Origin: Candidatus Calditenuis fumarioli
Lineage (GTDB): Archaea > Thermoproteota > Nitrososphaeria_A > Caldarchaeales > Calditenuaceae
Direction: 5' to 3'
Assembly: GCA_030059665.1 (NCBI GenBank)
Contig: JANVYR010000001.1
Span: 687,106 to 711,105 of the forward strand
DNA length: 24,000 bases
In this document: positions 2,794-24,000 of the stretch, one piece after another
Position numbering within the stretch: the first letter of the stretch is position 1
Layout: every line of letters begins with the position of its first letter
Notes under the pieces: model-generated
What the model saw: only the letters and a program-made list of their open reading frames with translations
Told to the model about the DNA's origin: nothing
Databases searched by the model: none
Position numbers and translations under genes: made by a program

Positions 2794-3969
2794 CTAATCG
2801 ATCGAGTAGATCGTGACGTAGGCGTAGTGCCCGGTACCTCCGACGTTGTGGGTCAGCGCCACGCCGTTCCGTATGTCGGCCTGTCTCCCGTTCTCCGCAC
2901 GCCTCGTCAGCTGCTTGACGGCCTCCACCGCCATCCCCACCCCGGTCGCGCCGATCGGGTGGCCCTTCGCCTTGAGGCCGCCGTCGAGGTTGACCGGTAT
3001 CAGGCCGCCGATGTAGGTCTGGTCCTCGCGGAGGAGCATGTAGCCCTCTCCCCTCCGGGCGAATCCCAGGTCCTCGTACGCCAGGATCTCCGCTATCGAG
3101 AAGCAGTCGTGGACGGTCGCCACGTCTATCTGCTTGTAGGGCCGGTCGTGGTCTATCCCCGCCTTCTTGTATGCGGCCCTCGCGGCCCTGTAGGCCGCCT
3201 CGAGCCCGAGGAAGTCGGGCCTCTTGGAGAGGTTGGCGGTTCCGCTGGCGTGGCCGATGGCCCTTATCCACACGGGAGAGTCGGTCAGCTTCCTCGCAAC
3301 TTCCTCTGACGCGAGGACCACAGCGGCCGCTCCGTCGGTGATCGGCGAGCACTCAAGAAGCTTCAGGGGCCATGCGATGTACCGGGAAGAGAGCACCTCC
3401 TCCAGCGTGACCTTGCGCTGGAACTGCGCCTTCGGGTTGAGCGAGCCGTAATAATGGTTCTTCACGGCAACGCGGGCTATGTCCTCCTCGGTGGCTCCGT
3501 AGGCGTCCATGTAGGCGGTGGCGTAGAGCGCGTAGTAGCCCGGGAAGGTGAGGCCGAAGTTCTCGAACTCCCAGAAGTAGTTCCCCGCACGGCCGATCAG
3601 CTCCACCACGTTCGGCGTAGGAGACTCGTTCATCCGCTCAACGCCCAAAGCCATCGCGATGTCGGCGGCGCCGGAGGCGACTGCGTCGTGGGCGATCTTG
3701 ATGGCGGCGCTCCCGGAGGCACAGGCGGCCTCCACCCTGAGCAGACCCGGTGAGTCGAGACCGAGGTACTCCGAGACGACAACGGCCGGTAGGGACTCGG
3801 AGCTCCAACCCGCCACGTTTCCGACCGCGACGAACTGGACCTCACCGGGCTCCACGCCAGCGTCCCTGAGCGCCTCCCTTCCTGCCTCGAAGGCCAGCTC
3901 CTGCAGGGTCCTGTCGGAGGCCCTTCCGAACCTCGTAATTCCAATGCCTACAACAGCAACCCTCCTCAA
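2794..3969 (-). CDS. Thiolase-domain protein (archaeal acetyl-CoA C-acetyltransferase / SCP-x type)
   Basis: 391 aa. Nucleophile region VEAACASGSAA; C-terminal thiolase motifs GGLKAKGHPIGATG and HNVGGTG. TTG start. Confidence 0.8.
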   Translation of the reverse strand: MRRVAVVGIGITRFGRASDRTLQELAFEAGREALRDAGVEPGEVQFVAVGNVAGWSSESLPAVVVSEYLGLDSPGLLRVEAACASGSAAIKIAHDAVASGAADIAMALGVERMNESPTPNVVELIGRAGNYFWEFENFGLTFPGYYALYATAYMDAYGATEEDIARVAVKNHYYGSLNPKAQFQRKVTLEEVLSSRYIAWPLKLLECSPITDGAAAVVLASEEVARKLTDSPVWIRAIGHASGTANLSKRPDFLGLEAAYRAARAAYKKAGIDHDRPYKQIDVATVHDCFSIAEILAYEDLGFARRGEGYMLLREDQTYIGGLIPVNLDGGLKAKGHPIGATGVGMAVEAVKQLTRRAENGRQADIRNGVALTHNVGGTGHYAYVTIYSID

Positions 3970-4799: not shown

Positions 4800-5582
4800 G
4801 TGCGCAGGTCGAGGTACGTCGCACCTCCGCTGCTCGCGCTGGCGCTGCTACTGCTCTTCCTGCTGATGCCCATGCGGGAGGCCGGATCAGGCCAGCTCCT
4901 CGAGATCGAGCAGCTCATCTCCGTCCCGGGAACGGGCGAACCGAACAGGGTGACCGTCAGGGTGGTCGTCCTCCACTCGGTCGACTGGGGGCCTCCGAGG
5001 AGGGCGAGGTTCGCTGAGGCGGTGGTGATGGTGGGGAGCGAGGTCCGGAGGGTCTCCTTCAACGGCGAGGCGGTCTTCCAGGTCCGGGTTGGGAACCACA
5101 CCGTCTCGGTTTACTGGGCCGACGGCCGGTTCCCCGCCTTCAGGACCAGCGTCCAGGTCCAGCAGGACACCGAGGTGACCGTCCAGTTCACAGAGCTGAG
5201 GGTCAGACCCCAGGCCATCGAGGTGGTGGCCGATCGGCAGATGGGGAGGAGCCTCGTGACGGTAACGGCAGTGGCCCCCGTGAGCGGTGACTTCTACGTC
5301 GCAACGCCCGTGATAAGGTACGTCGATTGGGAGGGCGAGGTGCTGGTACACCCGTTCATGACCAGGGCCGATCTGGTCTCGGTCATGCCCTACTCACTTG
5401 ACCGGTCGAGGCTTGCGGCCAGCGCTGATGAGGAGACGGGCCTCGGGGACGCCGCCATCGACGCCCAATCCAACGTCATCAGGATCGAGACCACGGTTCA
5501 GGACGTTATCGCTGCGGTGCTGGAGGGGAGCTACGTCCCGGTCCTGGTGATGAACCACACGGTGAGGGCCGTTGCTCGCTGA
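4800..5582 (+). CDS. Hypothetical N-terminally membrane-anchored/secreted beta-rich protein
   Basis: N-terminal RRSR + LLALALLLLFLLM signal/anchor. The remainder is beta-strand-like, with a segment resembling carboxypeptidase-regulatory/PEGA folds (VSFNGEAVFQVRVGNHTVSVYW...TEVTVQF). GTG start 27 nt downstream of the box ACACTTATTGCC. Confidence 0.6.
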   Translation: MRRSRYVAPPLLALALLLLFLLMPMREAGSGQLLEIEQLISVPGTGEPNRVTVRVVVLHSVDWGPPRRARFAEAVVMVGSEVRRVSFNGEAVFQVRVGNHTVSVYWADGRFPAFRTSVQVQQDTEVTVQFTELRVRPQAIEVVADRQMGRSLVTVTAVAPVSGDFYVATPVIRYVDWEGEVLVHPFMTRADLVSVMPYSLDRSRLAASADEETGLGDAAIDAQSNVIRIETTVQDVIAAVLEGSYVPVLVMNHTVRAVAR

Positions 5583-8650: not shown

Positions 8651-8737
8651 CGGTGGTCCGATCCGCGTGTGGCCAAAGCGAGCGTCCATGCCCGGGTCAG
8701 GGGGATGGCCTTTATCAGGTGCAGCAGCTGGGAGGGG

Positions 8738-9787
8738 GTGAGGTTGCGAAGCAAAAGGGAGCTCAAGCTCGGCTACTGGCTGGCGACGGAGCAGCACGGC
8801 CCTACGAGGCTTATGGAGCTGGCGACCCATGCGGTCATCGCGGGCTTCGACGTCCTCGTGCTAAGCGACCACTTCCACCCGTGGAGGGACAAGGGAGGTC
8901 AGGCACCGCACCCGTGGATAGTGCTCACCGCCATCGCCGAGCGCTTCAAGGGGGTTGAGGTGGGGACCGCGGTGACGACGCCCCTGTTCAGGTACCACCC
9001 TGCAATAGTCGCGCAGGCCTTCGCAACCCTCGACCACATGTACCCCAACCGGATCTTCATCACCGTCGGAACTGGTCACGCGATGAACGAGGTTCCACTG
9101 GGCTTCGAGTGGCCGGGCTACAAGGAGAAGGTGGGGAGGCTGAGGGAGGCGATCGAGATCATGAAGCTGCTCTGGGAGGGGGACTTCGTCGATTACGAGG
9201 GGACTTACTACAAGCTCAGGACCGCGAAGCTCTACACCAAGCCCCGCGGAAGGGTGAGGGTTTACGTGGCCACAGCCGATGCGGGCGTTGCGCGGATCGC
9301 CGGAGCGCTCACCGACGGGATCCTGACGAACCCGAGGGGGATGGAGAACTTCAACGCGCTGGTATCGGCATTCCTGGAGGGCGCTAAGTCCGCCGGTAAG
9401 GACCCGTCGAGCCTCTCACTTTGTCTGGAGTTCAAGGTCTCCTACGACATCGACTACGACAGGGCGCTCCAGGGAGCCCTCTTCTGGGGGCCGACCGCGA
9501 TACCGCGGGAGAAGCGGGAGAAGATCTGGGACCCGAGGGTTCTGGAGAGCATGGTCGGCGAGGCCGAGGTCGAGAAGATCAAGAAGACCTGGCTGATCAC
9601 GAGCGACCCGGACGACATCTACAAGGCTCTGGGCGAGCTGATGAAGCTCGGGTTCGACAGGGTCTACATCCACAGCTCGTCTCCCGACGAGGAGAAGTTC
9701 CTGAGGATGCTGGGGAGGGAGATACTGCCGTGGCTGAGGGAGTACTACAGCTCCCTCCGGGTGCCTCTCAGGGTAGCGCCCGAGTGA
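8738..9787 (+). CDS. LLM-class F420-dependent oxidoreductase, glucose-6-phosphate-dehydrogenase (FGD) family
   Basis: Near-colinear with my recollection of mycobacterial FGD: ELKLGYW..EQ...SDHFHPWR..GGQAP...TPLFRYHPAIVAQAFATLDHMYPNRIFITVGTGHAMNE...GDFVDYEGTYYKL. Start ambiguous (GTG 8738, TTG 8744, or GTG 8669). Confidence 0.8.
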   Translation: MRLRSKRELKLGYWLATEQHGPTRLMELATHAVIAGFDVLVLSDHFHPWRDKGGQAPHPWIVLTAIAERFKGVEVGTAVTTPLFRYHPAIVAQAFATLDHMYPNRIFITVGTGHAMNEVPLGFEWPGYKEKVGRLREAIEIMKLLWEGDFVDYEGTYYKLRTAKLYTKPRGRVRVYVATADAGVARIAGALTDGILTNPRGMENFNALVSAFLEGAKSAGKDPSSLSLCLEFKVSYDIDYDRALQGALFWGPTAIPREKREKIWDPRVLESMVGEAEVEKIKKTWLITSDPDDIYKALGELMKLGFDRVYIHSSSPDEEKFLRMLGREILPWLREYYSSLRVPLRVAPE

Positions 9788-9921
9788 GCGGAGCCCTTCG
9801 CGCCCGGTTCCCGATCTGGGCCAGCTCTCCGTTAATTTCCGCTTCCCAAACCGTCGGAGCCGCAGGACAGCGCAAACACTACAAATTGCACCGCGTATTG
9901 CTGACCGGAGCGGGTGGAGGG

Positions 9922-10500
9922 ATGTCCGAGCTGAGGGCTGAGACGACGGCGAAGCCGAAGTACGCGGAGGAGGTCGTCCAGATCCCGGAGGGCGTGACGG
10001 TCGAGGTGGTGGACGAGGTGACGATAAGGGTGAAGGGGCCGCTGGGGGAGCTGGTGAAGTCCTTCGCGAACGCCGGCATCAGGATCTCCAAAACCGAGAA
10101 CGGCCTGCTGGTCAGGGTCTACGGGAGGGGCAAGAGGGTCGATGCGATGATCGGGACGTTCAAGGCCGTCTTCAGGAACATGGTGCTGGGCGTGACGAAG
10201 GGATTCACGTACAAGCTTAAGGTCGTTCAGACCCACTTCCCGATGAACCTGAAGGTGCAGGGGAACAGGCTCGTGATCGAGAACTTCATCGGCGAGCGCT
10301 ACCCGAGGGTCGTCGAGATTTTGCCGGGCGTTAAGGTGACAGTGAAGGGCGAGGACGTGATCGTCACCGGGATCGATAGGGAGGCGGTCGGGCTCGTCGC
10401 GGGCCGGATAGAGCAGGCGACCAAGATCAGGAACAAGGACCTCAGGAAGTTCCTCGACGGGATCTACGTCTACTACAAGGGCGTTGGGATCGAGAAGTAG
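9922..10500 (+). CDS. rpl6: Ribosomal protein uL6 (L6P)
   Basis: 192 aa. IPEGVTVEV...VKGPLGEL...GVTKGFTYKLKVVQTHFPMNLKVQGNRLVIENFIGERYPR...VTGIDREAVG..A.RIEQATKIRNKDLRKFLDGIYV is canonical archaeal L6. ATG preceded by GGTGGAGGG. Confidence 0.9.
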   Translation: MSELRAETTAKPKYAEEVVQIPEGVTVEVVDEVTIRVKGPLGELVKSFANAGIRISKTENGLLVRVYGRGKRVDAMIGTFKAVFRNMVLGVTKGFTYKLKVVQTHFPMNLKVQGNRLVIENFIGERYPRVVEILPGVKVTVKGEDVIVTGIDREAVGLVAGRIEQATKIRNKDLRKFLDGIYVYYKGVGIEK

Positions 10501-10511
10501 CCGCACCCCCT

Positions 10512-12611
10512 TCACGACCTCGCCTCGAACCGCAGCAGCTCCAGCGGGTGGAGCACCCTCATCCCGGTTCCCGACCTCAGGTGAAGGGCGCAGACGCTGC
10601 TCTCCGTGACGATCGCGTCGAACCCTCCCGACCTGAAGGCGTCGAAGAGCCTCCTGCCCATCGCCTGAGAGAGCTTTCTCCCGATCGGCCCGGCCTTCAT
10701 CCCGAAGGTTCCGGCCATGCCGCAGCACATCCCGTCGCCGACGACCTCGGCCTCTGCACCGGCCCTTCGCAGCAGCCAGAGAACGTTCTCGGCACCGGAG
10801 AGGGCCCTCTGATGGCACGGGACGTGGACGCCGTACCTACCCCTCACCGGCCTCGCGGACAACCTGCCCGATGCCGCGAGCTCCCTCAGCAGCCCCAATG
10901 CTTCCACCGTTTTCCCCGCGACCTCCACAGAGGCCTCGTTGCGTAGCAGGTAGGGGTAGACGAACTTGAGCGCGTAGGTCGCCGTCGGCTCCAGAGATAC
11001 GACGAGATAACCCCTGGAGGTGAACTCTCGCAGCACGCGGACGTTGTACTCCGCGATCCTCATCGCCCCCTTCAGGTCTCCGTAGGCCACCAGCGGGTAG
11101 CCCGAGGTCCTAACGTCGGGGACATCCACCTCGATCCCGGTTTCCTGCAGCAGCGCGATCATCCCCTCGGCCAGGTCAGGCCTGACGTACTCGTAGAAGA
11201 AGTCCGGGAAGAGCGCGACCCGCATCACGGGGTTCTCGGGCCTCCGCATCACCCTCCCCAGACGCGCCCTCAAGCTCCTCTCCGCGAAGGGAGGAACCTC
11301 TGCATCCCTGTCCAGGCCCAGCAACCTCTCCATCAACCACCTGAAGGTACGGGACCTCAGCGCCCAGTTGGCGACGGGCGCGAACCTCGAGGCCAGTGCT
11401 CCGAACCGCTCGTAGGCCATCATGACCCTGTTGACCCAGGGGAATCCGCGGGACTCCGCGTCGAGCTCCTTCACCCGCGCTATCATCATCGGTATGTTGA
11501 TCTCCACTGGGCAGACCTCCCTGCAGAGGCCGCAGGAGATGCAGAGGTGCGCGAAAACGGCACGATCGAGGCCGTGGACGTTCGCGGTCCAGGGTATACC
11601 GATGGGCCCTGGGTAGATGTGCCCGAAGACGTGACCGCCGACGACGCTGTACGGAGCGCAGACGTTCATGCAGGCCCCGCACCGGATGCAGTAGAGGGCC
11701 TCCCTGAAGACCGGATCTTCCCTCATCCTCCTACGGCCGTTGTCGAGCAGAACCACGTGCAGCTCCCTCCCCTCGGACCCTGGCAGCTCCATCCTCCCTC
11801 CCATCACGGAGACGTAGACGGTCAGCCTCTGGCCCGTGGCGGCCACCGCGTGGGACCTGGCGAGCATCAGGGCCTCCTCGACTGTACTCACCACCTTCTC
11901 GATGCCTAGGAGGACGATCTGGATTCTCGGCAGCGAGGCGACGAGCCTGCCGTTCCCCTCGTTCGTCTCCAGCACCACCGCACCCAGCTCCGCGATCGCG
12001 ACGTTGGCGCCGTTGATGCCGACGTCAGCCTCGAGGAACTTCCGCCTGAGCCTCTCCCTGACGTACCTGAGCACCGCGCCTATCTCCGGCTCAAGCCTCA
12101 CTCCTGCCTCCGCGGAGAAGAGCCCTGCCACCTCCTCGACCGTCCTGTGTATCGCGGGGAAGACCAGGTGGCTCGGCCTCTCCTTCGCCAGCTGGATGAT
12201 CCGCTCGCCGAGGTCCGTCTCGATCACCTCGATCCCAGCACCCTCGAGAACCCCGTTCAGCTCGATCTCCTCGCTGGTGAGGGACTTAGACTTGACGACG
12301 GTCCTGGCGCCTGCCCTCTCCGCTATCCCGAGGATTATCTCGCAGGCCTCTTTCGCGTCCGCTGCGAAGTGCACCTTCGCTCCCCTCGCCTCGGCGTTCC
12401 TGACGAACTCCCGCACCAGCTCCTCGAGCTCCTCGACGCTCCTCTCCTTGATCGCCCTCACACCAGCCCTGAACGACGCGTAGTCCTCGAACTCCGCTAT
12501 CGCCCGCTCCCTACCCCTCAGACCCCTGAGCATGGCCGCGTACAGCCCCCTCACCCCTCCCCTCCGGATCGACTCGGAGACGGCCCGCTCGAGCTCCCGG
12601 TACGTCATCAC
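10512..12611 (-). CDS. Fused LutB-LutA-type iron-sulfur oxidoreductase (LUD domain + 2x[4Fe-4S] ferredoxin + CCG cysteine-rich domains)
   Basis: N-terminal LUD/DUF162-like region (KSKSLTSEEI...HLVFPAIH). Ferredoxin motifs CIRCGACMNVCAPY and CISCGLCREVCPVE. C-terminal CCG motif GMCCGMAGTFG. Confidence 0.75.
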   Translation of the reverse strand: MMTYRELERAVSESIRRGGVRGLYAAMLRGLRGRERAIAEFEDYASFRAGVRAIKERSVEELEELVREFVRNAEARGAKVHFAADAKEACEIILGIAERAGARTVVKSKSLTSEEIELNGVLEGAGIEVIETDLGERIIQLAKERPSHLVFPAIHRTVEEVAGLFSAEAGVRLEPEIGAVLRYVRERLRRKFLEADVGINGANVAIAELGAVVLETNEGNGRLVASLPRIQIVLLGIEKVVSTVEEALMLARSHAVAATGQRLTVYVSVMGGRMELPGSEGRELHVVLLDNGRRRMREDPVFREALYCIRCGACMNVCAPYSVVGGHVFGHIYPGPIGIPWTANVHGLDRAVFAHLCISCGLCREVCPVEINIPMMIARVKELDAESRGFPWVNRVMMAYERFGALASRFAPVANWALRSRTFRWLMERLLGLDRDAEVPPFAERSLRARLGRVMRRPENPVMRVALFPDFFYEYVRPDLAEGMIALLQETGIEVDVPDVRTSGYPLVAYGDLKGAMRIAEYNVRVLREFTSRGYLVVSLEPTATYALKFVYPYLLRNEASVEVAGKTVEALGLLRELAASGRLSARPVRGRYGVHVPCHQRALSGAENVLWLLRRAGAEAEVVGDGMCCGMAGTFGMKAGPIGRKLSQAMGRRLFDAFRSGGFDAIVTESSVCALHLRSGTGMRVLHPLELLRFEARS

Positions 12612-12612
12612 C

Positions 12613-13164
12613 TCACACCTCCAGGAAGACCACCGTTGTGTGTGGTCCGTGCACGCCGAGCGTCAGCCTGAGCTCTATGTCGCCGGTCCTGCTCGGCCCA
12701 GAGATCAGCGTCACCGCGAAGCCCCTGCTCTGAGCTGCCCTCCTGATCAGGCCAGCGACCTGAAGGAGGTCCGGGAGCACAGCTTCGGCCCTGATGTGGG
12801 CGACGTGGACCGGAGGTAGAGCGGAGACCAACCTGTCGGACTCGGTGTGGCAGACCTCGACGATCGATCCCGTTTCGGCGACCGCCGCTGCCGGGAAGGT
12901 TACGCCGGCCCCGCAGCCCTCGATGCTCGCCGCGTCTGCGCCCGGTGGAACCACCTCGAACCGTCCGCGGAGCTCTCGGATCAGATCGCTCGACCTGTTG
13001 TCGCCGGAGGAGGCCACAGCCACCCGTTTCACCCCTCTCCTCTCCAGCCACTCCGCTATGCCCCGGACGGCCCCGTCCCAGCCGCGCGTGACCACGACCT
13101 CGCCGTTCTGGTCGGTGAACCTCTCCGCAAACCTCCTCACGACCTCGCCGACCTCCGGCTGCAA
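12613..13164 (-). CDS. LutC-like LUD-domain protein
   Basis: 183 aa with the size and composition of LutC/YkgG-type LUD proteins. Sits immediately upstream of and coupled to the LutB-LutA fusion (1-nt spacer). TTG start 27-28 nt from CTTTTATAG. Confidence 0.6.
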   Translation of the reverse strand: MQPEVGEVVRRFAERFTDQNGEVVVTRGWDGAVRGIAEWLERRGVKRVAVASSGDNRSSDLIRELRGRFEVVPPGADAASIEGCGAGVTFPAAAVAETGSIVEVCHTESDRLVSALPPVHVAHIRAEAVLPDLLQVAGLIRRAAQSRGFAVTLISGPSRTGDIELRLTLGVHGPHTTVVFLEV

Positions 13165-13187
13165 CCCACGACGGCATCAGCCCATCG

Positions 13188-13321: not shown

Positions 13322-13393
13322 GGGGCCGTGGTCTAGTGGCATGACGCCGCCCTCACACGGCGGAGGTCGTGGGTTCGATTCCCACCGGCCCCA
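13322..13393 (+). tRNA. tRNA-Val (anticodon CAC), no intron, CCA not encoded
   Basis: Manual cloverleaf. Acceptor GGGGCCG/CGGCCCC; D arm GUCU-AGUGGCA-UGAC; anticodon stem CCGCC/GGCGG with loop CU-CAC-AC; T arm GUGGG-UUCGAUU-CCCAC; discriminator A. Confidence 0.9.
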
Positions 13394-13512: not shown

Positions 13513-13845
13513 GTGGCGGAGCAGATCGACATCTCCGAGTTCAGGAAGGTCGACATCAGGATAGGGAAGGTAGTCGAGGCCGAGCGGGTCCAGGGGACCG
13601 ACAGGCTGATCAGGCTGACCGTGGACTTCGGAGGCGTCCGGAAGCAGGCCCTTACGGGACTCGGTCACCTCTACCAGCCCGAGCACTTCCTGGGAAGGAA
13701 GTTCGCCTTCGTCACGAACCTTAAGCCGAAGAAGGTGAGGGGTCTCGTGTCCGAGTGCATGATCCTTGCGGCCATGAAGGACGAGAACGACGTGGTCCCT
13801 CTGGTCCCGGAGAGGGACATCGCCGAGGGCTCTCAGGTCCTCTGA
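13513..13845 (+). CDS. Stand-alone tRNA-binding OB-fold protein (Trbp111/CsaA/MetRS C-terminal-domain-like)
   Basis: 110 aa. F.KVDIRIGKVVEAE...DRLIRLTVDFG...RQ...GL...Y.PE.L.GRKFAFVTNLKP.K.RG..S.CMILAA is typical of this domain. Confidence 0.8.
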   Translation: MAEQIDISEFRKVDIRIGKVVEAERVQGTDRLIRLTVDFGGVRKQALTGLGHLYQPEHFLGRKFAFVTNLKPKKVRGLVSECMILAAMKDENDVVPLVPERDIAEGSQVL

Positions 13846-14261
13846 CCCCTCAGGAACTCCTCAGCGGCCGCGAGCACCTCCCTCGACGTCCTGAACCTCA
13901 GCCTGGACATCGCCTCCTCGAAGGGCAGCCACTCGAACCCCTTGTGCTCGTGGGAGATCCTCACGTCGGTAGTTTTGGATTTTCCAAGATAGTAGACGAC
14001 GCTCTTATGCACTTTCTCACCCTTCTCGGTGTAGAAGTAGCTGATCTCCTTCCGGAAGCCGAAGAGGACCTCGACGTCGTTCAGGCCGGTCTCCTCGCGG
14101 AGCTCCCTCAGGGCGGCCCTGATGTCGCTCTCCCCCTGCTCCACGTGGCCCTTCGGGAAGTCCCAGTGACCGCTGGGGTAGTGGAGAAGCAGATAGAGCC
14201 TGGTGCCGTCCTCGCGCTCGGAGAAGACGACGAAGCCCGCGGACCTCTCCCTTCTGACCAT
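13833..14261 (-). CDS. Nudix hydrolase (Ap4A-hydrolase-like)
   Basis: Nudix box GHWDFPKGHVEQGESDIRAALRELREETG. Starts 4 nt after the acs stop. Confidence 0.85.
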   Translation of the reverse strand: MVRRERSAGFVVFSEREDGTRLYLLLHYPSGHWDFPKGHVEQGESDIRAALRELREETGLNDVEVLFGFRKEISYFYTEKGEKVHKSVVYYLGKSKTTDVRISHEHKGFEWLPFEEAMSRLRFRTSREVLAAAEEFLRGQRT

Positions 14262-14265
14262 CCGC

Positions 14266-16275
14266 TCAGCGGATCTGCCTCCTCAGCTCCTCGTAAGCGG
14301 TCTTGATCTCCTCAACGGTCGCCTCATCCTCGAGGGTCGTGACGTCGCCCAACGGCGCGTTCATCAGGACCGCCCTCAGCAGCCTCCTCATGATCTTCCC
14401 GCTCCTGGTCTTGGGAAGGGCCCTGACGAAGACCACCTCCCTCGGCACCATTATCGGTCCGTACCTCTCCCTTATCCACCTCATCAGCTCGGCCTTCAGC
14501 TCGCCCGACGGCTGGTGTCCTGACTTGAGGACGACGAACGCCACCGGAGCCTCGCCCTTGACCTCGTCCGGAACGCCCACCACGGCCGACTCCGCAACGG
14601 ACGGGTGAGCGACGAGCGCCGACTCGAGCTCGTAGGTGCCTATCCTGTGGCCGGCGACCTTGAGGACCTCGTCAGCCCTTCCAGCGACCCAGATGTAACC
14701 GTCCTCGTCCCTGATCGCGTAGTCGCCTGTGTAGTAAACCCCTGGGAACCTGGACCAGTACACCCTGTTGTAGCCCTCCGGATCCCCCCACATGCCGGTG
14801 GGAGGAGCGAGCATCCCGGGCCAGGGCCTCTTGATCACGAGGAAGCCCTTCGATCCGGCCGGCAGGGACCTTCCCTGCTCGTCGACCACGTCCACCTCTA
14901 TCCCAGGAAGCGGAGGGCCGTTGGTGCCGGGCTTCAGCGGGACAAGCGCCAGCCCGGGAGCGTGGCTGATCAGGATCCCACCGGTCTCGGTCTGCCACCA
15001 AGTGCTCCCGACCGGGCACCTCCCTCCGCCGACCACCTCGTAGAGCCACCTCCAGGCCGACGGGTTGATCGGTTCGCCGACGCTGTGGATCAGCCTCAGC
15101 GTCGAGAGGTCGTGCCTCTTCACGTGCTCGTCGCCGAAGCGGATGAGCATCCTGACGGCCGTCGGGGTGGTGTAGAGGATCGTGACGCCGTACCTCTCCA
15201 CTATCGACCACCACCTGTCTGGTGCCGGGTAGTCGGGCGTTCCCTCGTACATCACGATCGTTGCTCCCTCCATCAGCGGCCCGAAGACGACGTAGCTGTG
15301 CCCCGTGACCCATCCTATGTCGGCCGTGCAGAAGTAGACGTCCTCGTCCCTTATGTCGAAGACCCACTTCATCGTGGCGTGGAGGAGGACGGAGTAGCCG
15401 TGGTGGTCGTGGATGATGCCCTTGGGCTTCCCGGTGGTACCTGAGGTGTAGAGCACGTAGAGCGGCTCATCGCAGGTCATCCTCTCGGGCTCCACGTAGG
15501 CGTTCACGGGGACCTCAGCGAGCAGGTCGTCGAGGAAGACGTCGCGTCCATCCGTCATCGGTACATCGGCCCCGAGCCTACTGACGACGACCACCTTCCT
15601 GATGCCGTCGTAGAGCCTGATCGCCTCATCGGCGATCTTCTTCAGCTCGATGACCCGACCCCTCCTGTAGAACCCGTCGGCGGTGATCAGGTACCTGGCT
15701 CCGAGGTCCCTCATCCTCATCGCGAGGTTCTCGCCGGTGAAGCCGCTGAAGACGACGGTGAAGACAGCGCCGAGCCTGGCGCATGCCAGCATCACCGCTG
15801 GGAGCTCCGGAACCATCGGCATGTAGATCGCCACCCTCTCCCCCCTCGAGACGCCCAGACGCCTGAGGGCATGGGCTATCCTGTTGACGAGCCTCCAGAG
15901 GTCGAAGTAGGTGAGGACGCGCCTCTCTCTCGGTTGGCCCCTCTCGTCGACCGGCTCACCCTCCCAGATGATCGCGACCTTGTTCCGCCTCCAGGTCCTG
16001 ACGTGCCTGTCGAGGCAGAGGTGGGAGACGTTGATCTCGCCGCCGACGAACCAGCGGTAGACGTTCGGGTGCTCGCCTGGAACGAGGACCCTATCCCACT
16101 TCCTGAACCACTCCAGCTCCTCCGCGACCCTACCCCAGAAGCCCTCCAGGTCCTCGACCGCGGCACGGTGGAGCTCGAAGTACGACTTCGGGTCCACGAC
16201 TTTACCCGAGTGGCTCGCCGGGACGATCCTCTCCTCAAACGGAAGGGGTTCGCCCATGATGCCCTCGGACGACAT
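14266..16275 (-). CDS. acs: Acetyl-CoA synthetase (AMP-forming acetate--CoA ligase)
   Basis: 669 aa, colinear with Acs. N-terminal ...FWGRVAEELEWF..W; AMP-binding motif YTSGTTGKPKG; YYTGDYA; C-terminal catalytic-Lys region TRSGKIMRRLLR. Confidence 0.9.
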   Translation of the reverse strand: MSSEGIMGEPLPFEERIVPASHSGKVVDPKSYFELHRAAVEDLEGFWGRVAEELEWFRKWDRVLVPGEHPNVYRWFVGGEINVSHLCLDRHVRTWRRNKVAIIWEGEPVDERGQPRERRVLTYFDLWRLVNRIAHALRRLGVSRGERVAIYMPMVPELPAVMLACARLGAVFTVVFSGFTGENLAMRMRDLGARYLITADGFYRRGRVIELKKIADEAIRLYDGIRKVVVVSRLGADVPMTDGRDVFLDDLLAEVPVNAYVEPERMTCDEPLYVLYTSGTTGKPKGIIHDHHGYSVLLHATMKWVFDIRDEDVYFCTADIGWVTGHSYVVFGPLMEGATIVMYEGTPDYPAPDRWWSIVERYGVTILYTTPTAVRMLIRFGDEHVKRHDLSTLRLIHSVGEPINPSAWRWLYEVVGGGRCPVGSTWWQTETGGILISHAPGLALVPLKPGTNGPPLPGIEVDVVDEQGRSLPAGSKGFLVIKRPWPGMLAPPTGMWGDPEGYNRVYWSRFPGVYYTGDYAIRDEDGYIWVAGRADEVLKVAGHRIGTYELESALVAHPSVAESAVVGVPDEVKGEAPVAFVVLKSGHQPSGELKAELMRWIRERYGPIMVPREVVFVRALPKTRSGKIMRRLLRAVLMNAPLGDVTTLEDEATVEEIKTAYEELRRQIR

Positions 16276-16346: not shown

Positions 16347-17143
16347 TCAGCTCAGGTCCTTTTCCTCGGCTGCACCGGTCCGCCTGAACTTCCCCTTCCA
16401 GAAGGCCGGATAGGTTCCCCGCTCCATCAGGACGACGTCCGTCCTCACGAAGACGCCTCCCTCGTCGAAGTCGAGCGCCGACTTCTCGGCTTTGCCGAGG
16501 GCCACCAGCTCGCCCTTCAGCGTGAAGATCGCAACGAGGTCGCCCTTCTCGATGGTCCGGTCGTAACGCGCCACCCCGGGCGTCGCCAGTGGGGCTCCGT
16601 GGCATATGGCATCGACCGCCGTGTCGAGCACTTCCACCCTCGGGAGGTGTGCGACCAGCTCCTCGGGGTTCCGGACGATCTCCCTGAGCCAGGACCCGTC
16701 GCCCTCCAGATAGGACCTGTAGGCGGCGTAGACCTCCAGCAGGCTGTGGGCCTGGGACTCGTGGAGGTTCCCGACCCTGGTGCGCCTGAGCTCGCGAAGG
16801 TGGGCTCCTGTTCCCAGCAGAAGGCCGACGTCGTGGCAGAGCTTCCGGACGTAGGTCCCTCCGCTGACGACGACCCTGAAGAGGACGTCCCTCCCCTCCC
16901 TCTCGAGGACCTCGAGCTCGTAGACCGTCCTGAGCCTGGGCCTCCTGGCGACCCTCGACCTGACGGGTGGGGTCTGGTAGATCTCGCCGACGAACTTGGT
17001 CAGCGCCTCCGCCAGCTCCCTGTCCGAGACGTCGCCGTGCAGCCGCATTACGCCCACGTACTCCTTGGGCAGGCCCGTCACCGCCTGCGTGAGCCTCGTG
17101 GCCCTTCCCAGCAGCACCGGGAGGACGCCGGTTACAGCGGGAT
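16347..17143 (-). CDS. cbf5: tRNA/rRNA pseudouridine synthase Cbf5 (TruB family), exon 2: 2nd and 3rd nt of the catalytic Asp codon, then PAVTGVLPVLLG... through the PUA domain
   Basis: ...(D)PAVTGVLPVLLGRATRL...GEIYQTPP...LFRVVVSGGTYVRKLCHDVG...GAHLRELRRTRVG...PUA-like C-terminus. Colinear with archaeal Cbf5 once joined to exon 1. Confidence 0.85.
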
Positions 17144-17163
17144 CTCCCCCGCCCCGAGGGCGC
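17144..17163 (-). other. 20-nt bulge-helix-bulge intron inside the cbf5 coding sequence (RNA: GCGCCCUCGGGGCGGGGGAG)
   Basis: Removal restores the frame and the GHGGTLDP motif. The flanks form a canonical hBHBh' structure with both junctions after the 2nd nt of 3-nt bulges (see finding). Confidence 0.8.
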
Positions 17164-17398
17164 CAAGGGTCCCGCCGTGGCCGGCCTGCTCGACGCCGAG
17201 TATCCGGCGGACGGATGCCACCACGTCCTGGCTCGTAGGCCCGGCGTGCTTGTCCGCGACGAGGTACCCGAACTCGAGCAGATCCCGCAGGGTCCGGTCC
17301 TCGGGACGCTTGCCGTACCTCTCGTCGGTCGTCGCGTCCACCACCGTCACGATCTCCCTCTCACGCTCTCTGAAGGGGTCGGAGTAGACGAACCTCAA
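17164..17398 (-). CDS. cbf5: Cbf5 exon 1 (N-terminus to ...AGHGGTL plus the first nt of the Asp codon)
   Basis: ...DERYGKRPEDRTLRDLLEFGYLVADKHAGPTSQDVVASVRRILGVEQAGHGGTL matches the Cbf5 N-terminal region. Proposed TTG start overlaps the rpl14e stop (TTGA); an alternative GTG is at 17350. Confidence 0.75.
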
Positions 17399-17685
17399 CT
17401 GACCCCGACCTTCACCCTCGACCTCACGTACTCGATGAGACCCGCCTCTTCCAGCGCCCTCTTCACCTCCTCGTCGGACGCTCCCCTCGCTATCCTGACC
17501 TTGTGCGGGGTGAAAGCCAGGTGGAGCACGTTGACCCTGCGCCTCCTGACGCCCGATACCTCCTTGGGCCCGGTCACCACCACGAACCCGTCCTCCTTGT
17601 CGACGTCCACGATCACGCACTTCAGCCCCGCCTCCCTTCCCCTCGTCTTCACCGCGATCCTCCCGATCTCCTCATCCAGGCCCAT
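17395..17685 (-). CDS. rpl14e: Ribosomal protein eL14 (L14e)
   Basis: 96 aa. EIGRIAVKTRGREAGLKCVIVDV.D..FVVVTGPKEVSGVRRRRVNVLHL..T.....I.RGASDEEVKRALEEAGL is canonical L14e. ATG 17685 lies 27 nt from the AAATTT box. Confidence 0.85.
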   Translation of the reverse strand: MGLDEEIGRIAVKTRGREAGLKCVIVDVDKEDGFVVVTGPKEVSGVRRRRVNVLHLAFTPHKVRIARGASDEEVKRALEEAGLIEYVRSRVKVGVS

Positions 17686-17783: not shown

Positions 17784-18356
17784 GTGGGCGCAGAGGAGGA
17801 GGTCTACGAGCGGTTGCTGAGGGCCCACGCGGAGGAGGTGAGGTCGCAGGGGCTCGCGAAGGTCCCGGAGGAGCTGCTCGACGCGATCGCCGCGCATGCC
17901 TCATCGCTGAGGAGGGCCATCAGGACCGCCGCGGAGAAGGGGTCGGTACACCAGAGGCTGAGGGAGCGGGAGCTCGAGGTCATGCGGAGGGTTCTGGCCG
18001 ATCTGCTCGAGCGGAGGCTGGCGAAGGTCGTCGGTGCGGCACTGGAGGGAAGGGTGCCTGAGAACGCGCTGCTCTTCGAGCTGCAGCTGTACCAGGAGCT
18101 CCGGACCGCCCTCGACTCCTACAGGGACCTCATGCTGCAGGCGGTGGAGGACCTGGACCTCCGGGGCTGCACATACCGGAGGGGACAGGCTCTGCTGGTC
18201 TTCACGGAGGACCACCCTGCGGTTACGGACGAGGAGGGCAGAAGAAGGGGCCCCTTCAGGCGAGGCTCCATTGCCTCCCTGCCACCGGTGACCGCGCTGC
18301 TCGCGCTGGACGCCGGAAAGGCGCGGCGCATCCCGCCACCACGGAGGCCGGAATAG
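17784..18356 (+). CDS. GINS complex subunit (Gins51/Gins15-like)
   Basis: Helical N-terminal domain (YERLLRAHAEE....L.KVPEELLD...). Small C-terminal beta domain (LLVFTEDHPAVTDEEGRRRGPFRRGSIASLPPVTALLALDAGKARRI). Assignment made by pattern memory only. Confidence 0.5.
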   Translation: MGAEEEVYERLLRAHAEEVRSQGLAKVPEELLDAIAAHASSLRRAIRTAAEKGSVHQRLRERELEVMRRVLADLLERRLAKVVGAALEGRVPENALLFELQLYQELRTALDSYRDLMLQAVEDLDLRGCTYRRGQALLVFTEDHPAVTDEEGRRRGPFRRGSIASLPPVTALLALDAGKARRIPPPRRPE

Positions 18357-22886: not shown

Positions 22887-22997
22887 GCTTCCCGCATGTC
22901 ATGACGTCCTCGGAATATTTATGTGGTTAAGGTAACAGGAGCCGCGTTCGGCCGTCCCGAGTGGAACCGTAGAATACCGGCAGGTCGGAGCAGGAGC

Positions 22998-24000
22998 GTG
23001 GCTTTCAGGAAGGGAAGGCTCGAGGGCGAGGTGCCTGAGAGGGTAGCGCGGTACATCTCATCGCTCGAGGAGGACGAGGAGATACTGGATGAGGTCCTTG
23101 CGGTGAACGCAGCCCACCTGAGGTCCCTGCGGAGGATGGGCCTGATCAGCGACGATGTCCTGGAGAGGGCGCTCGGCGCGCTGAGGGGGTTCCCGAGGGA
23201 GGCGCTGAGGACCGCGGACCCGAGGCTCGAGGACGTCCACATGGTGGTGGAGGAGCACCTGAGGTCGGAGGTACCAGAGGCCGGGGAGAACCTGGCGCTC
23301 GGGAAGAGCAGGAACGACGCCGTCTCCGCCGCGATCAGGATGAGGGTTCGCCGTTTCATCGCCGAGCTCGTCCTCTCGGGCACCGGCCTCGCGGAGGCGC
23401 TGCTCTCCAAGGCGGAGGAATACGCTGAGACCCTCTTCCCCCTCCACACGCACGAGCAGCCTGCCGCTCCGGGGACCCTCGGGTTCGTGCTGAGCTGCCA
23501 CGCATCCCGCCTCCTGAAGGCCCTTCGGGCGCTGGCCTCGGCGTACGGAGAGGTTAACGCGTCGCCTCTCGGCGCCGGACCGGTTGGCGGGACCTCCGTG
23601 CCCCATGACCGGCTGGCCATTGCCGAGGACCTCGGTTTCGACGGCGTCGTCCTGAACGCCCTGGAGGCTAGCTCCTCGAGGGACTTCGCGCTTGCCTTCC
23701 TCTGCGGCCTCCTCAGGGTTTCGCTCGTCCTCACAGACCTCGCGGAGGAGCTCGTGAGGTACGTCTCGCAGAACCCTCCGTTGCTGGACTTCGACGACGC
23801 CTTCTTCTCGACCAGCAGCATCATGCCCCACAAGAGGAACCCGGTCGTCGCGGAGGTTGCCAGGACCTCGCTCTCAAGGGTGCTCGGGGAGCTGGTGAGG
23901 TTCTCGGTCAACGTCTCGAGGAGGTTCGGTGGTTACGTGCTGGACCTCCAGGAGTCGACGGAGCCCCTCTGGAGGGCGGCGCGGTGGACGCTCGAGACGC
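22998..24000 (+). CDS. argH: Argininosuccinate lyase, 3'-truncated by the window edge
   Basis: Not in the ORF track because it is open to the window end. My own translation gives VAFRKGRLEGEV...AHLRSL...GKSRNDAV...HTHEQPAAPGTLG...FFSTSSIMPHKRNP (fumarate-lyase signature). Confidence 0.85.
   Translation, partial: MAFRKGRLEGEVPERVARYISSLEEDEEILDEVLAVNAAHLRSLRRMGLISDDVLERALGALRGFPREALRTADPRLEDVHMVVEEHLRSEVPEAGENLALGKSRNDAVSAAIRMRVRRFIAELVLSGTGLAEALLSKAEEYAETLFPLHTHEQPAAPGTLGFVLSCHASRLLKALRALASAYGEVNASPLGAGPVGGTSVPHDRLAIAEDLGFDGVVLNALEASSSRDFALAFLCGLLRVSLVLTDLAEELVRYVSQNPPLLDFDDAFFSTSSIMPHKRNPVVAEVARTSLSRVLGELVRFSVNVSRRFGGYVLDLQESTEPLWRAARWTLET

Follow-up and report, generated by a model that had tools for sequence, protein, structure and literature searches.

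The window analysed here, a stretch of 24,000 nucleotides (nt) on contig JANVYR010000001.1 of the hot-spring archaeon Candidatus Calditenuis fumarioli, carries on its minus strand a cbf5 gene that is divided between two reading frames by a 20-nt candidate intron of the bulge-helix-bulge (BHB) type. The upstream piece is open reading frame (ORF) 17132..17620, which ends in ...AGHGGTLGALGAGEIPL (likewise printed ...VEQAGHGGTLGALGAGEIPL), and the downstream piece is ORF 16347..17117 in another frame, with the N-terminus MLLGRATRL. Removal of the 20 nt at 17163..17144 (GCGCCCTCGGGGCGGGGGAG) gives ...GGG ACC CTT G|AT CCC GCT GTA..., encoding GHGGTL-D-PAVTG, and a joined frame of 343 amino acids (aa) that runs from a TTG at 17398 to a TGA stop at 16349-16347. 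The interruption falls between nt 1 and nt 2 within the codon that encodes the catalytic Asp (phase 1), which is residue 79 of the joined protein and is restored at the junction as G|AT, the protein stretch across the junction being ...AGHGGTLDPAVTGVLPVLLGR.

Exon 1 (17164..17398, minus strand) comprises the TTG start, 78 codons and the first nt (G) of the Asp79 codon, and codes for DKCLD and for the first part of TruB_N, as far as ...AGHGGTL. Exon 2 (16347..17143, minus strand) supplies nt 2-3 of that codon (AT), continues with PAVTGVLPVLLG... to the TGA at 16347-16349, and codes for TruB_N, TruB_C_2 and PUA. The initial annotation, made from the letters alone, had described a Cbf5 split over two frames by 20 nt and rejoined into a 343-aa archaeal protein containing GHGGTL-D; the ORFs and the sequence are as it described, and homology agrees. 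In Pfam searches the joined protein shows DKCLD, TruB_N over its full profile (positions 1-149 of 149, across the junction), TruB_C_2 and PUA; against the NCBIfam Cbf5 equivalog NF003280, which has a cut-off of 242 bits, it reaches 377.9 bits. A PDB search matched it to P. furiosus Cbf5 (2hvy_A, E = 1e-87), gap-free through AGHGGTLDPAVTGVLPV / AGHGGTLDPKVSGVLPV, with Asp79 aligned to the GTLD motif. The Asp of this motif is the catalytic residue of TruB/Cbf5 enzymes (PMC2738675), as is also general knowledge.

The intron (GCGCCCUCGGGGCGGGGGAG, 17144..17163, minus strand), identified by the restoration of frame and Asp codon on its removal, by structure and by comparison with relatives, is embedded in a complete hBHBh' motif of 45 nt (17134..17178, minus strand) that is supported by folding, covariation and a motif scan. 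The outer helix pairs 17178-17170 with 17142-17134 (ACGGCGGGA/UCCCGCUGU, 9 bp, one G·U), and the central helix pairs 17169-17166 with 17149-17146 (CCCU/GGGG, 4 bp). The inner helix pairs 17162-17158 with 17154-17150 (CGCCC/GGGCG, 5 bp) around the loop UCG at 17157-17155. Two 3-nt bulges lie on opposite strands with the 4-bp helix between them: the 5' bulge UG|G (17165-17163), with a predicted cut after 17164, and the 3' bulge AG|A (17145-17143), with a predicted cut after 17144. The handedness is that of a BHB (5' strand h-H-B-h', 3' strand h'-H-B-h), and the terminal helices of 9 bp (h) and 5 bp (h') exceed the strict criterion of at least two Watson-Crick pairs each (PMC7714728). The cuts that the reading frame demands fall after the second nt of both bulges, as in tRNA introns, and yield CUU G|AU CCC and the in-frame 343-aa Cbf5. 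The hand-drawn fold of the initial annotation, including its placement of both junctions after the second bulge nt in the canonical geometry of a substrate of the tRNA splicing endonuclease EndA, agrees with the structure computation; the U·G wobble that forms the last pair of the central helix had gone unmentioned there.

In RNAfold calculations, a check that had already been suggested for this site, the BHB fold has an energy of -28.3 kcal/mol, within 0.6 kcal/mol of the unconstrained minimum free energy (MFE) of -28.9 kcal/mol at 37 °C, and at 85 °C it is the MFE structure. We set aside the slightly different pairing that is favoured at 37 °C, since it is the BHB that has the lowest energy at 85 °C and is backed by covariation. 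The 66-nt region folds with z = -2.9 against shuffled sequences.

Both strands of the window were scanned for strict BHB motifs (h of at least 9, h' of at least 5, intron of 12-60 nt), with 100 dinucleotide shuffles as the control. The cbf5 site is the only strict hBHBh' motif found, where the shuffles lead one to expect 0.04 per window. The count of relaxed BHB-like motifs does not stand out from chance (25 observed vs 21.8 expected), and the weight therefore rests on the strict geometry and on its exact coincidence with the frame break. That a strict motif matches the frame break in the catalytic codon to the nucleotide is far beyond chance. Since a G stands both before the intron and at its last nt, moving the cut by 1 nt would leave the mRNA unchanged, and the site is set by the BHB rule alone.

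The second-best BHB-like motif in the window, found with h of at least 7 and h' of at least 4, lies at 9637-9657 on the plus strand (21 nt, in frame). We rejected it as an intron: it most likely is none, because it falls in the part of a luciferase-like monooxygenase gene (8669-9787) that aligns to the Pfam domain, and chance alone would give 1.1 motifs of this kind. Searches of the window with ARAGORN and with Rfam at gathering thresholds returned nothing at the cbf5 intron, their only match being a tRNA-Val at 13322-13393; that the intron is missed is as expected, there being no model for it.

The host belongs to a lineage placed by NCBI in Thermoproteati; Nitrososphaerota; Ca. Caldarchaeales (the former 'Aigarchaeota'), and it is outside the 'crenarchaeotes' as meant in the cbf5-intron literature. 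GTDB places Caldarchaeales under the phylum Thermoproteota, class Nitrososphaeria. The earlier description of the contig as coming from a Thermoproteota-type archaeon is thus right in this GTDB phylum sense, and wrong if a classical crenarchaeote is meant.

The distribution of the intron was examined in the 80 best GTDB loci (one genome per species) plus the window, 81 sequences in all, and in nine further loci (L081-L089); the position of GTL|D|P was determined by script for every one of them. Bathyarchaeia, Korarchaeia, Brockarchaeia and Asgard archaea fall outside this sample. The nearest loci, at 90% identity in the best segment, are those of Ca. Calditenuaceae archaeon JGI OTU-1 pSL4 (AWOE01000013.1) and Ca. 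Calditenuis sp. PSP.bin.8. An insertion between the G and the AY of the Asp codon is present in 22 of the 81 sequences, in L081-L089 and in 17 metagenome contigs, and the alignment of relatives proposed in the initial annotation thus shows a shared intron position, with lengths in the relatives of 13-38 nt. Within the Calditenuis clade the intron measures 20 nt (the window, L001, L002, L088/89) or 22 nt (L081/82, L085, L086/87), and in a related metagenome-assembled genome (MAG) 13 nt (L083/84). Other Caldarchaeales-type MAGs, including Ca. Caldarchaeum sp. SKYG59 and Archaeon HR02, have introns of 14-20 nt (L018, L025, L028, L030, L040, L047, L048, L056). Within the Caldarchaeales-type Cbf5 clade the site is interrupted in each of the 15 distinct genomic loci.

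Beyond this clade, introns were found in seven Ignisphaera loci (29-38 nt), a Desulfurococcales MAG (36 nt, L042) and Sulfolobales HS-7 (18 nt, L065). A Methanomethylicia MAG (23 nt, L067, after locus position 3154) and a Nezhaarchaeales MAG (19 nt, L069, after locus position 3190) carry insertions at the same G|AY site of the Asp codon with all four pairs of the central helix; for neither group did we find a published record of a cbf5 intron in the searchable literature. A pattern scan of JGI metagenomes gave 19 matches, 17 of them cbf5 with an intron; the other two (L096, L103) are chance matches outside cbf5 and were set aside. Among the 17 are two further metagenome lineages of about 53% G+C with 16-nt cbf5 introns: in a sediment lineage the conserved His of GHGGTLD is replaced by Gln (GQGGTLD; L095, L097-L099, L101, L106), and in L100 and L102 by Tyr (GYGGTLD).

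Among the GTDB loci the intron is absent from Thermofilum, two Thermoprotei/Thermoproteales MAGs, Nitrososphaerales, Geothermarchaeota, one Sulfolobales MAG and all euryarchaeal and DPANN loci. Full-length, apparently uninterrupted Cbf5 proteins (338 aa, about 55% identical) are encoded by Ca. Wolframiiraptor (P0022) and other 'Nitrososphaerota' MAGs. The intron is therefore not universal, and since even the 'Aigarchaeota' carry it only in part, it must have been lost or have been gained more than once.

These loci bear on whether the 20 nt are a spurious insertion or indel of sequencing or assembly. The contig is of metagenome type and the window has a G+C content of about 64% (63-66%), with G-runs that are error-prone. 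However, NCBI MAGs, JGI metagenomes and Logan SRA assemblies are independently interrupted at this point, by related but different sequences of 20-22 nt. An artefact is effectively refuted by these independent assemblies, and its probability is practically negligible.

For covariation we used a fixed-register alignment of 26 sequences (25 distinct), made up of 15 nt from exon 1, 5 nt from the start and 10 nt from the end of the intron, and 10 nt from exon 2. BHB pairing is present in 85.2% of the alignment cells, vs 45-54% after displacement of the 3' partners by 1-3 columns. Pairing in the central helix is 100% (4/4 in all 25 distinct sequences), and two of its pairs show double, compensatory changes from C-G to U-A. 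All four aligned pairs of the inner helix covary, the first of them occurring as GC in 10, CG in 9 and AU in 4 cases; within the Calditenuis clade this helix alternates between CGCC(C)/(G)GGCG and GGCC(C)/(G)GGCC, and the loop varies freely. In none of 500 shuffles was the pairing, the covariation score or the count of compensatory pairs as high as in the real alignment. The exon-exon helix is maintained through synonymous sites, with 8.6 of 9 pairs in aigarchaeal intron-bearing genes vs 5.1 of 9 in intronless cbf5 with the same motif; both strands of this outer helix are coding, which means that the structure is kept through codon choice. Protein identity between the window Cbf5 and that of L001 is 81% in exon 1 and 88% in exon 2, and for L081/L085/L086 it is 67-70% and 73-76%, respectively. 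The shared site, the covariation, the codon choice and the conserved exons argue against a pseudogene, an assembly artefact and a split protein.

A pseudogene would mean that the 20-nt insertion inactivated cbf5 by frameshift and that the gene is decaying. Gene callers and public annotation do see two ORFs or a truncated 256-aa 'Cbf5' here, but the same nucleotide is interrupted throughout the Caldarchaeales-type loci at protein identities of only 45-88%, both exons stay open and conserved, and the insert, though variable in both sequence and length, retains its BHB pairing by compensatory changes. A second cbf5 locus from the same genomes was not seen among the best 80 loci. Cbf5 is encoded by a near-universal archaeal gene, which we also counted against decay. 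We regard a pseudogene as extremely improbable, and the earlier statement that the gene is intact, spliced and not a pseudogene has gained comparative backing from the common site in independent assemblies, the covarying pairs and the conserved exons.

A further alternative does away with splicing: the two ORFs could be translated separately as a split Cbf5, or ribosomes could bypass or frameshift over the 20 nt. Both pieces are open, and exon 2 has an in-frame GTG at 17117. Yet the catalytic Asp is in neither ORF, start codons in the exon 2 frame occur only downstream of DPAVTGVLPV, and two 3-nt bulges exactly 4 bp apart are not explained by any known bypass signal. Moreover, the introns of 33 and 36 nt in Ignisphaera and Desulfurococcales are in frame and need no frameshift, yet they retain the BHB, and splicing of the crenarchaeal homologues has been shown by cDNA sequencing and EndA cleavage (PMC2738675). 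Translation without splicing is, in our estimate, very improbable.

We consider it highly probable, on comparative sequence evidence, that the 20 nt are an archaeal cbf5 pre-mRNA intron in Ca. Calditenuis. The rpl14e-cbf5 transcript would fold at the catalytic Asp codon into the canonical BHB; EndA would cut after the second nt of both bulges (after 17164 and after 17144 on the minus strand); and the RNA ligase RtcB would join the exons. The mature mRNA, with the Asp79 codon rebuilt as G|AU, would then give an active Cbf5 of 343 aa, which is the H/ACA ribonucleoprotein (RNP) pseudouridine synthase. EndA cleavage, ligation and any regulatory role are steps that we infer from sequence. Unspliced RNA can give an 88-aa N-terminal fragment and a 256-aa fragment from the GTG at 17117, both lacking the Asp; because only such fragments would be produced, splicing is predicted to be obligatory for Cbf5 activity, and it could gate Cbf5 production.

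Three points weigh against this interpretation. A full-length (spliced) Calditenuis Cbf5 was not found among the database proteins, where the close matches cover exon 2 only. No gene for EndA or RtcB turned up in the 24 kb of the window, to which the search was confined. Finally, the pairing is partly imposed by the conserved amino-acid motif (GGN GGN vs CCN), which makes the exon helix alone weak evidence.

Directly upstream of cbf5 lies rpl14e, encoding 50S ribosomal protein L14e (17395..17685, minus strand; NF003320, 99.4 bits vs a cut-off of 87). Its stop and the TTG start of cbf5 share 4 nt (GTTGA; window 17395-17401, minus strand), and the two genes are probably co-transcribed. The 4-nt overlap suggests that translation of the intron-containing gene is coupled to that of a ribosomal protein gene, and it makes one ask how splicing would compete with such translation. 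A short gene also lies just upstream of cbf5 exon 1 in L083, L088 and L089, where it has no Pfam match. Downstream of cbf5 in the window is an acetyl-CoA synthetase gene.

The intron-bearing genes show two architectures. Caldarchaeales-type genes have a near-perfect exon-exon helix of 6-9 bp and introns of 13-22 nt; the exon helix is strong because the codons for Pro-Ala-Val (CCC GCN GU) can pair with those for His-Gly-Gly-Thr (AC GGC GGG A), and the inner helix is short or irregular, Calditenuis excepted. Genes on the Thermoprotei side (Ignisphaera, Desulfurococcales, Sulfolobales) have a Pro-Lys/Asn-Val motif, a weak exon helix (5.1/9 pairs, at most 4 contiguous) and, in the intron, a long hairpin of up to 11 bp. 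Methanomethylicia and Nezhaarchaeales combine Pro-Lys-Val and a weak exon helix with shorter introns, of 23 and 19 nt, and inner helices of just 5 and 3 bp, respectively. At the short extreme, the 13-nt intron of L083 (about 1479-1491) and L084, AGUUCUCGGGGAG, lies below the published minimum of 16 bp and essentially lacks h', the 5' bulge running into the hairpin loop; if spliced, it would need an endonuclease of relaxed specificity. The window intron is the most canonical hBHBh' among all loci examined and, judging from established EndA specificity, could in principle be cut even by a strict EndA. Consisting mostly of coding sequence, the Calditenuis hBHBh' offers a clean natural substrate on which to compare the stringency of EndA types towards mRNA.

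The cbf5 introns of Aeropyrum pernix, Sulfolobus and other Desulfurococcales and Sulfolobales are the closest known counterparts, and the initial annotation had cited the papers on them (Watanabe 2002, Yokobori 2009) correctly. They are 16-44 bp long and follow the first letter of the catalytic Asp codon; cleavage is predicted between the second and third bulge residues, the motifs are mostly 'unconventional' BHBs, and splicing has been confirmed in several species by cDNA sequencing and endonuclease cleavage (Yokobori 2009, PMC2738675). A negative regulatory role was proposed by Watanabe et al., as cited in PMC2738675. The window intron shares with them the host gene, the exact point of insertion, the size class (20 nt, inside the published range, with no ORF), cuts after the second bulge nt and an intron 3' end, GGGG(A/U)N, that pairs with exon CCCU. 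It differs in its strict hBHBh' with a 9-bp exon-exon helix, and in its host, Ca. Calditenuis (Caldarchaeales), which is outside the reported range: carriers were found only among Desulfurococcales and Sulfolobales, with none in Thermoproteales, Cenarchaeum, Nitrosopumilus and Korarchaeum (PMC2738675), and a 2020 paper still places the intron 'in crenarchaeota' (PMC7714728).

With the BHB introns of archaeal tRNAs and rRNAs the window intron has in common the hBHBh' geometry (3-nt bulges, 4-bp helix), the cut positions and the presumed enzymes EndA and RtcB, but it resides in a protein-coding mRNA, its outer helix is coding sequence, and ARAGORN and Rfam are blind to it. The BHB intron of Haloferax volcanii HVO_1309 (Schwarz et al. 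2020, PMC7714728) is likewise an mRNA substrate of the archaeal splicing endonuclease, but it lies in a 5' untranslated region rather than in a codon, in an unrelated gene of a euryarchaeon with an α2 enzyme. The aigarchaeon Ca. Caldiarchaeum subterraneum is reported to have a heterotetrameric splicing endonuclease and many BHB tRNA introns (PMC3082918). Targeted full-text searches, with most subscription journals outside their scope, found no earlier account of a cbf5 intron in Aigarchaeota, Caldiarchaeum or Calditenuis, and none is mentioned in the papers on the Caldiarchaeum genome and on Calditenuis. The intron position is already known, and the host lineage appears to be new.

The distribution found here contradicts the published restriction and makes questionable the published dating, which has the cbf5 intron gained in the ancestor of Desulfurococcales and Sulfolobales. 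In a neighbour-joining tree of 81 spliced Cbf5 proteins (a single gene, without bootstraps, with deep nodes not resolved), all Caldarchaeales-type intron-bearing proteins fall in one clade, and another holds Sulfolobales, Desulfurococcales, Ignisphaera, Methanomethylicia and Nezhaarchaeales; the separate clades make a recent transfer of an intron-bearing cbf5 from crenarchaea unlikely. Aigarchaeal and crenarchaeal introns share only pairing-constrained nt (a first nt that is mostly A, and the 3' GGGG(A/U)N). As the intron interiors have no sequence similarity, common descent is not provable from the intron itself.

With moderate confidence we propose that the cbf5 intron is not peculiar to Desulfurococcales and Sulfolobales but, occurring at the same phase-1 Asp site in Caldarchaeales, Methanomethylicia, Nezhaarchaeales and further metagenomic lineages, is ancient or recurrent. 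Either it stems from an early TACK (Thermoproteati) ancestor and was repeatedly lost, the losses then including Thermoproteales, ammonia oxidisers, Wolframiiraptor-like Caldarchaeales, Pyrodictiaceae and Ignicoccus, or the naturally self-complementary GGN-GGN-ACN / GAY-CCN site is a place where BHB introns insert again and again. If true, each of the two readings would revise the published timing of the only well-studied protein-gene intron in Archaea, and the choice between an ancient intron with losses and repeated insertion becomes a question answerable from existing genomes.

Cbf5 is systematically mis-annotated across the intron-bearing lineages. The close database proteins (100% to 63% identity) are all calls of 247-257 aa that cover exon 2 only. 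P0001, P0002, P0004, P0005, P0205 and P0206 (e.g. MDJ0274328.1) are such ORFs, lacking the Asp and named 'Cbf5' or 'H/ACA RNP subunit 4' by PGAP and IMG. On the contigs of relatives a separate DKCLD ORF of 81-127 aa lies just upstream of the exon 2 ORF, mostly overlapping it, and this exon 1 ORF is annotated separately (as DKCLD, once as 'TruB'). Because public calls lack exon 1 and the Asp, completeness and marker analyses and Cbf5 phylogenies of Aigarchaeota, Methanomethylicia and Nezhaarchaeales use truncated proteins.

Elsewhere in the window, searches of Pfam at E <= 1e-5 and of NCBIfam at E <= 0.01 gave nothing for six long ORFs (183-330 aa): 4800-5582 (+), 9832-10818 (-), 12608-13177 (-), 13755-14306 (+), 17784-18356 (+) and 22919-23911 (-). 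Some of them may be spurious, given the 64% G+C of the genome. The ORF at 17784-18356 is the divergent neighbour of rpl14e-cbf5.

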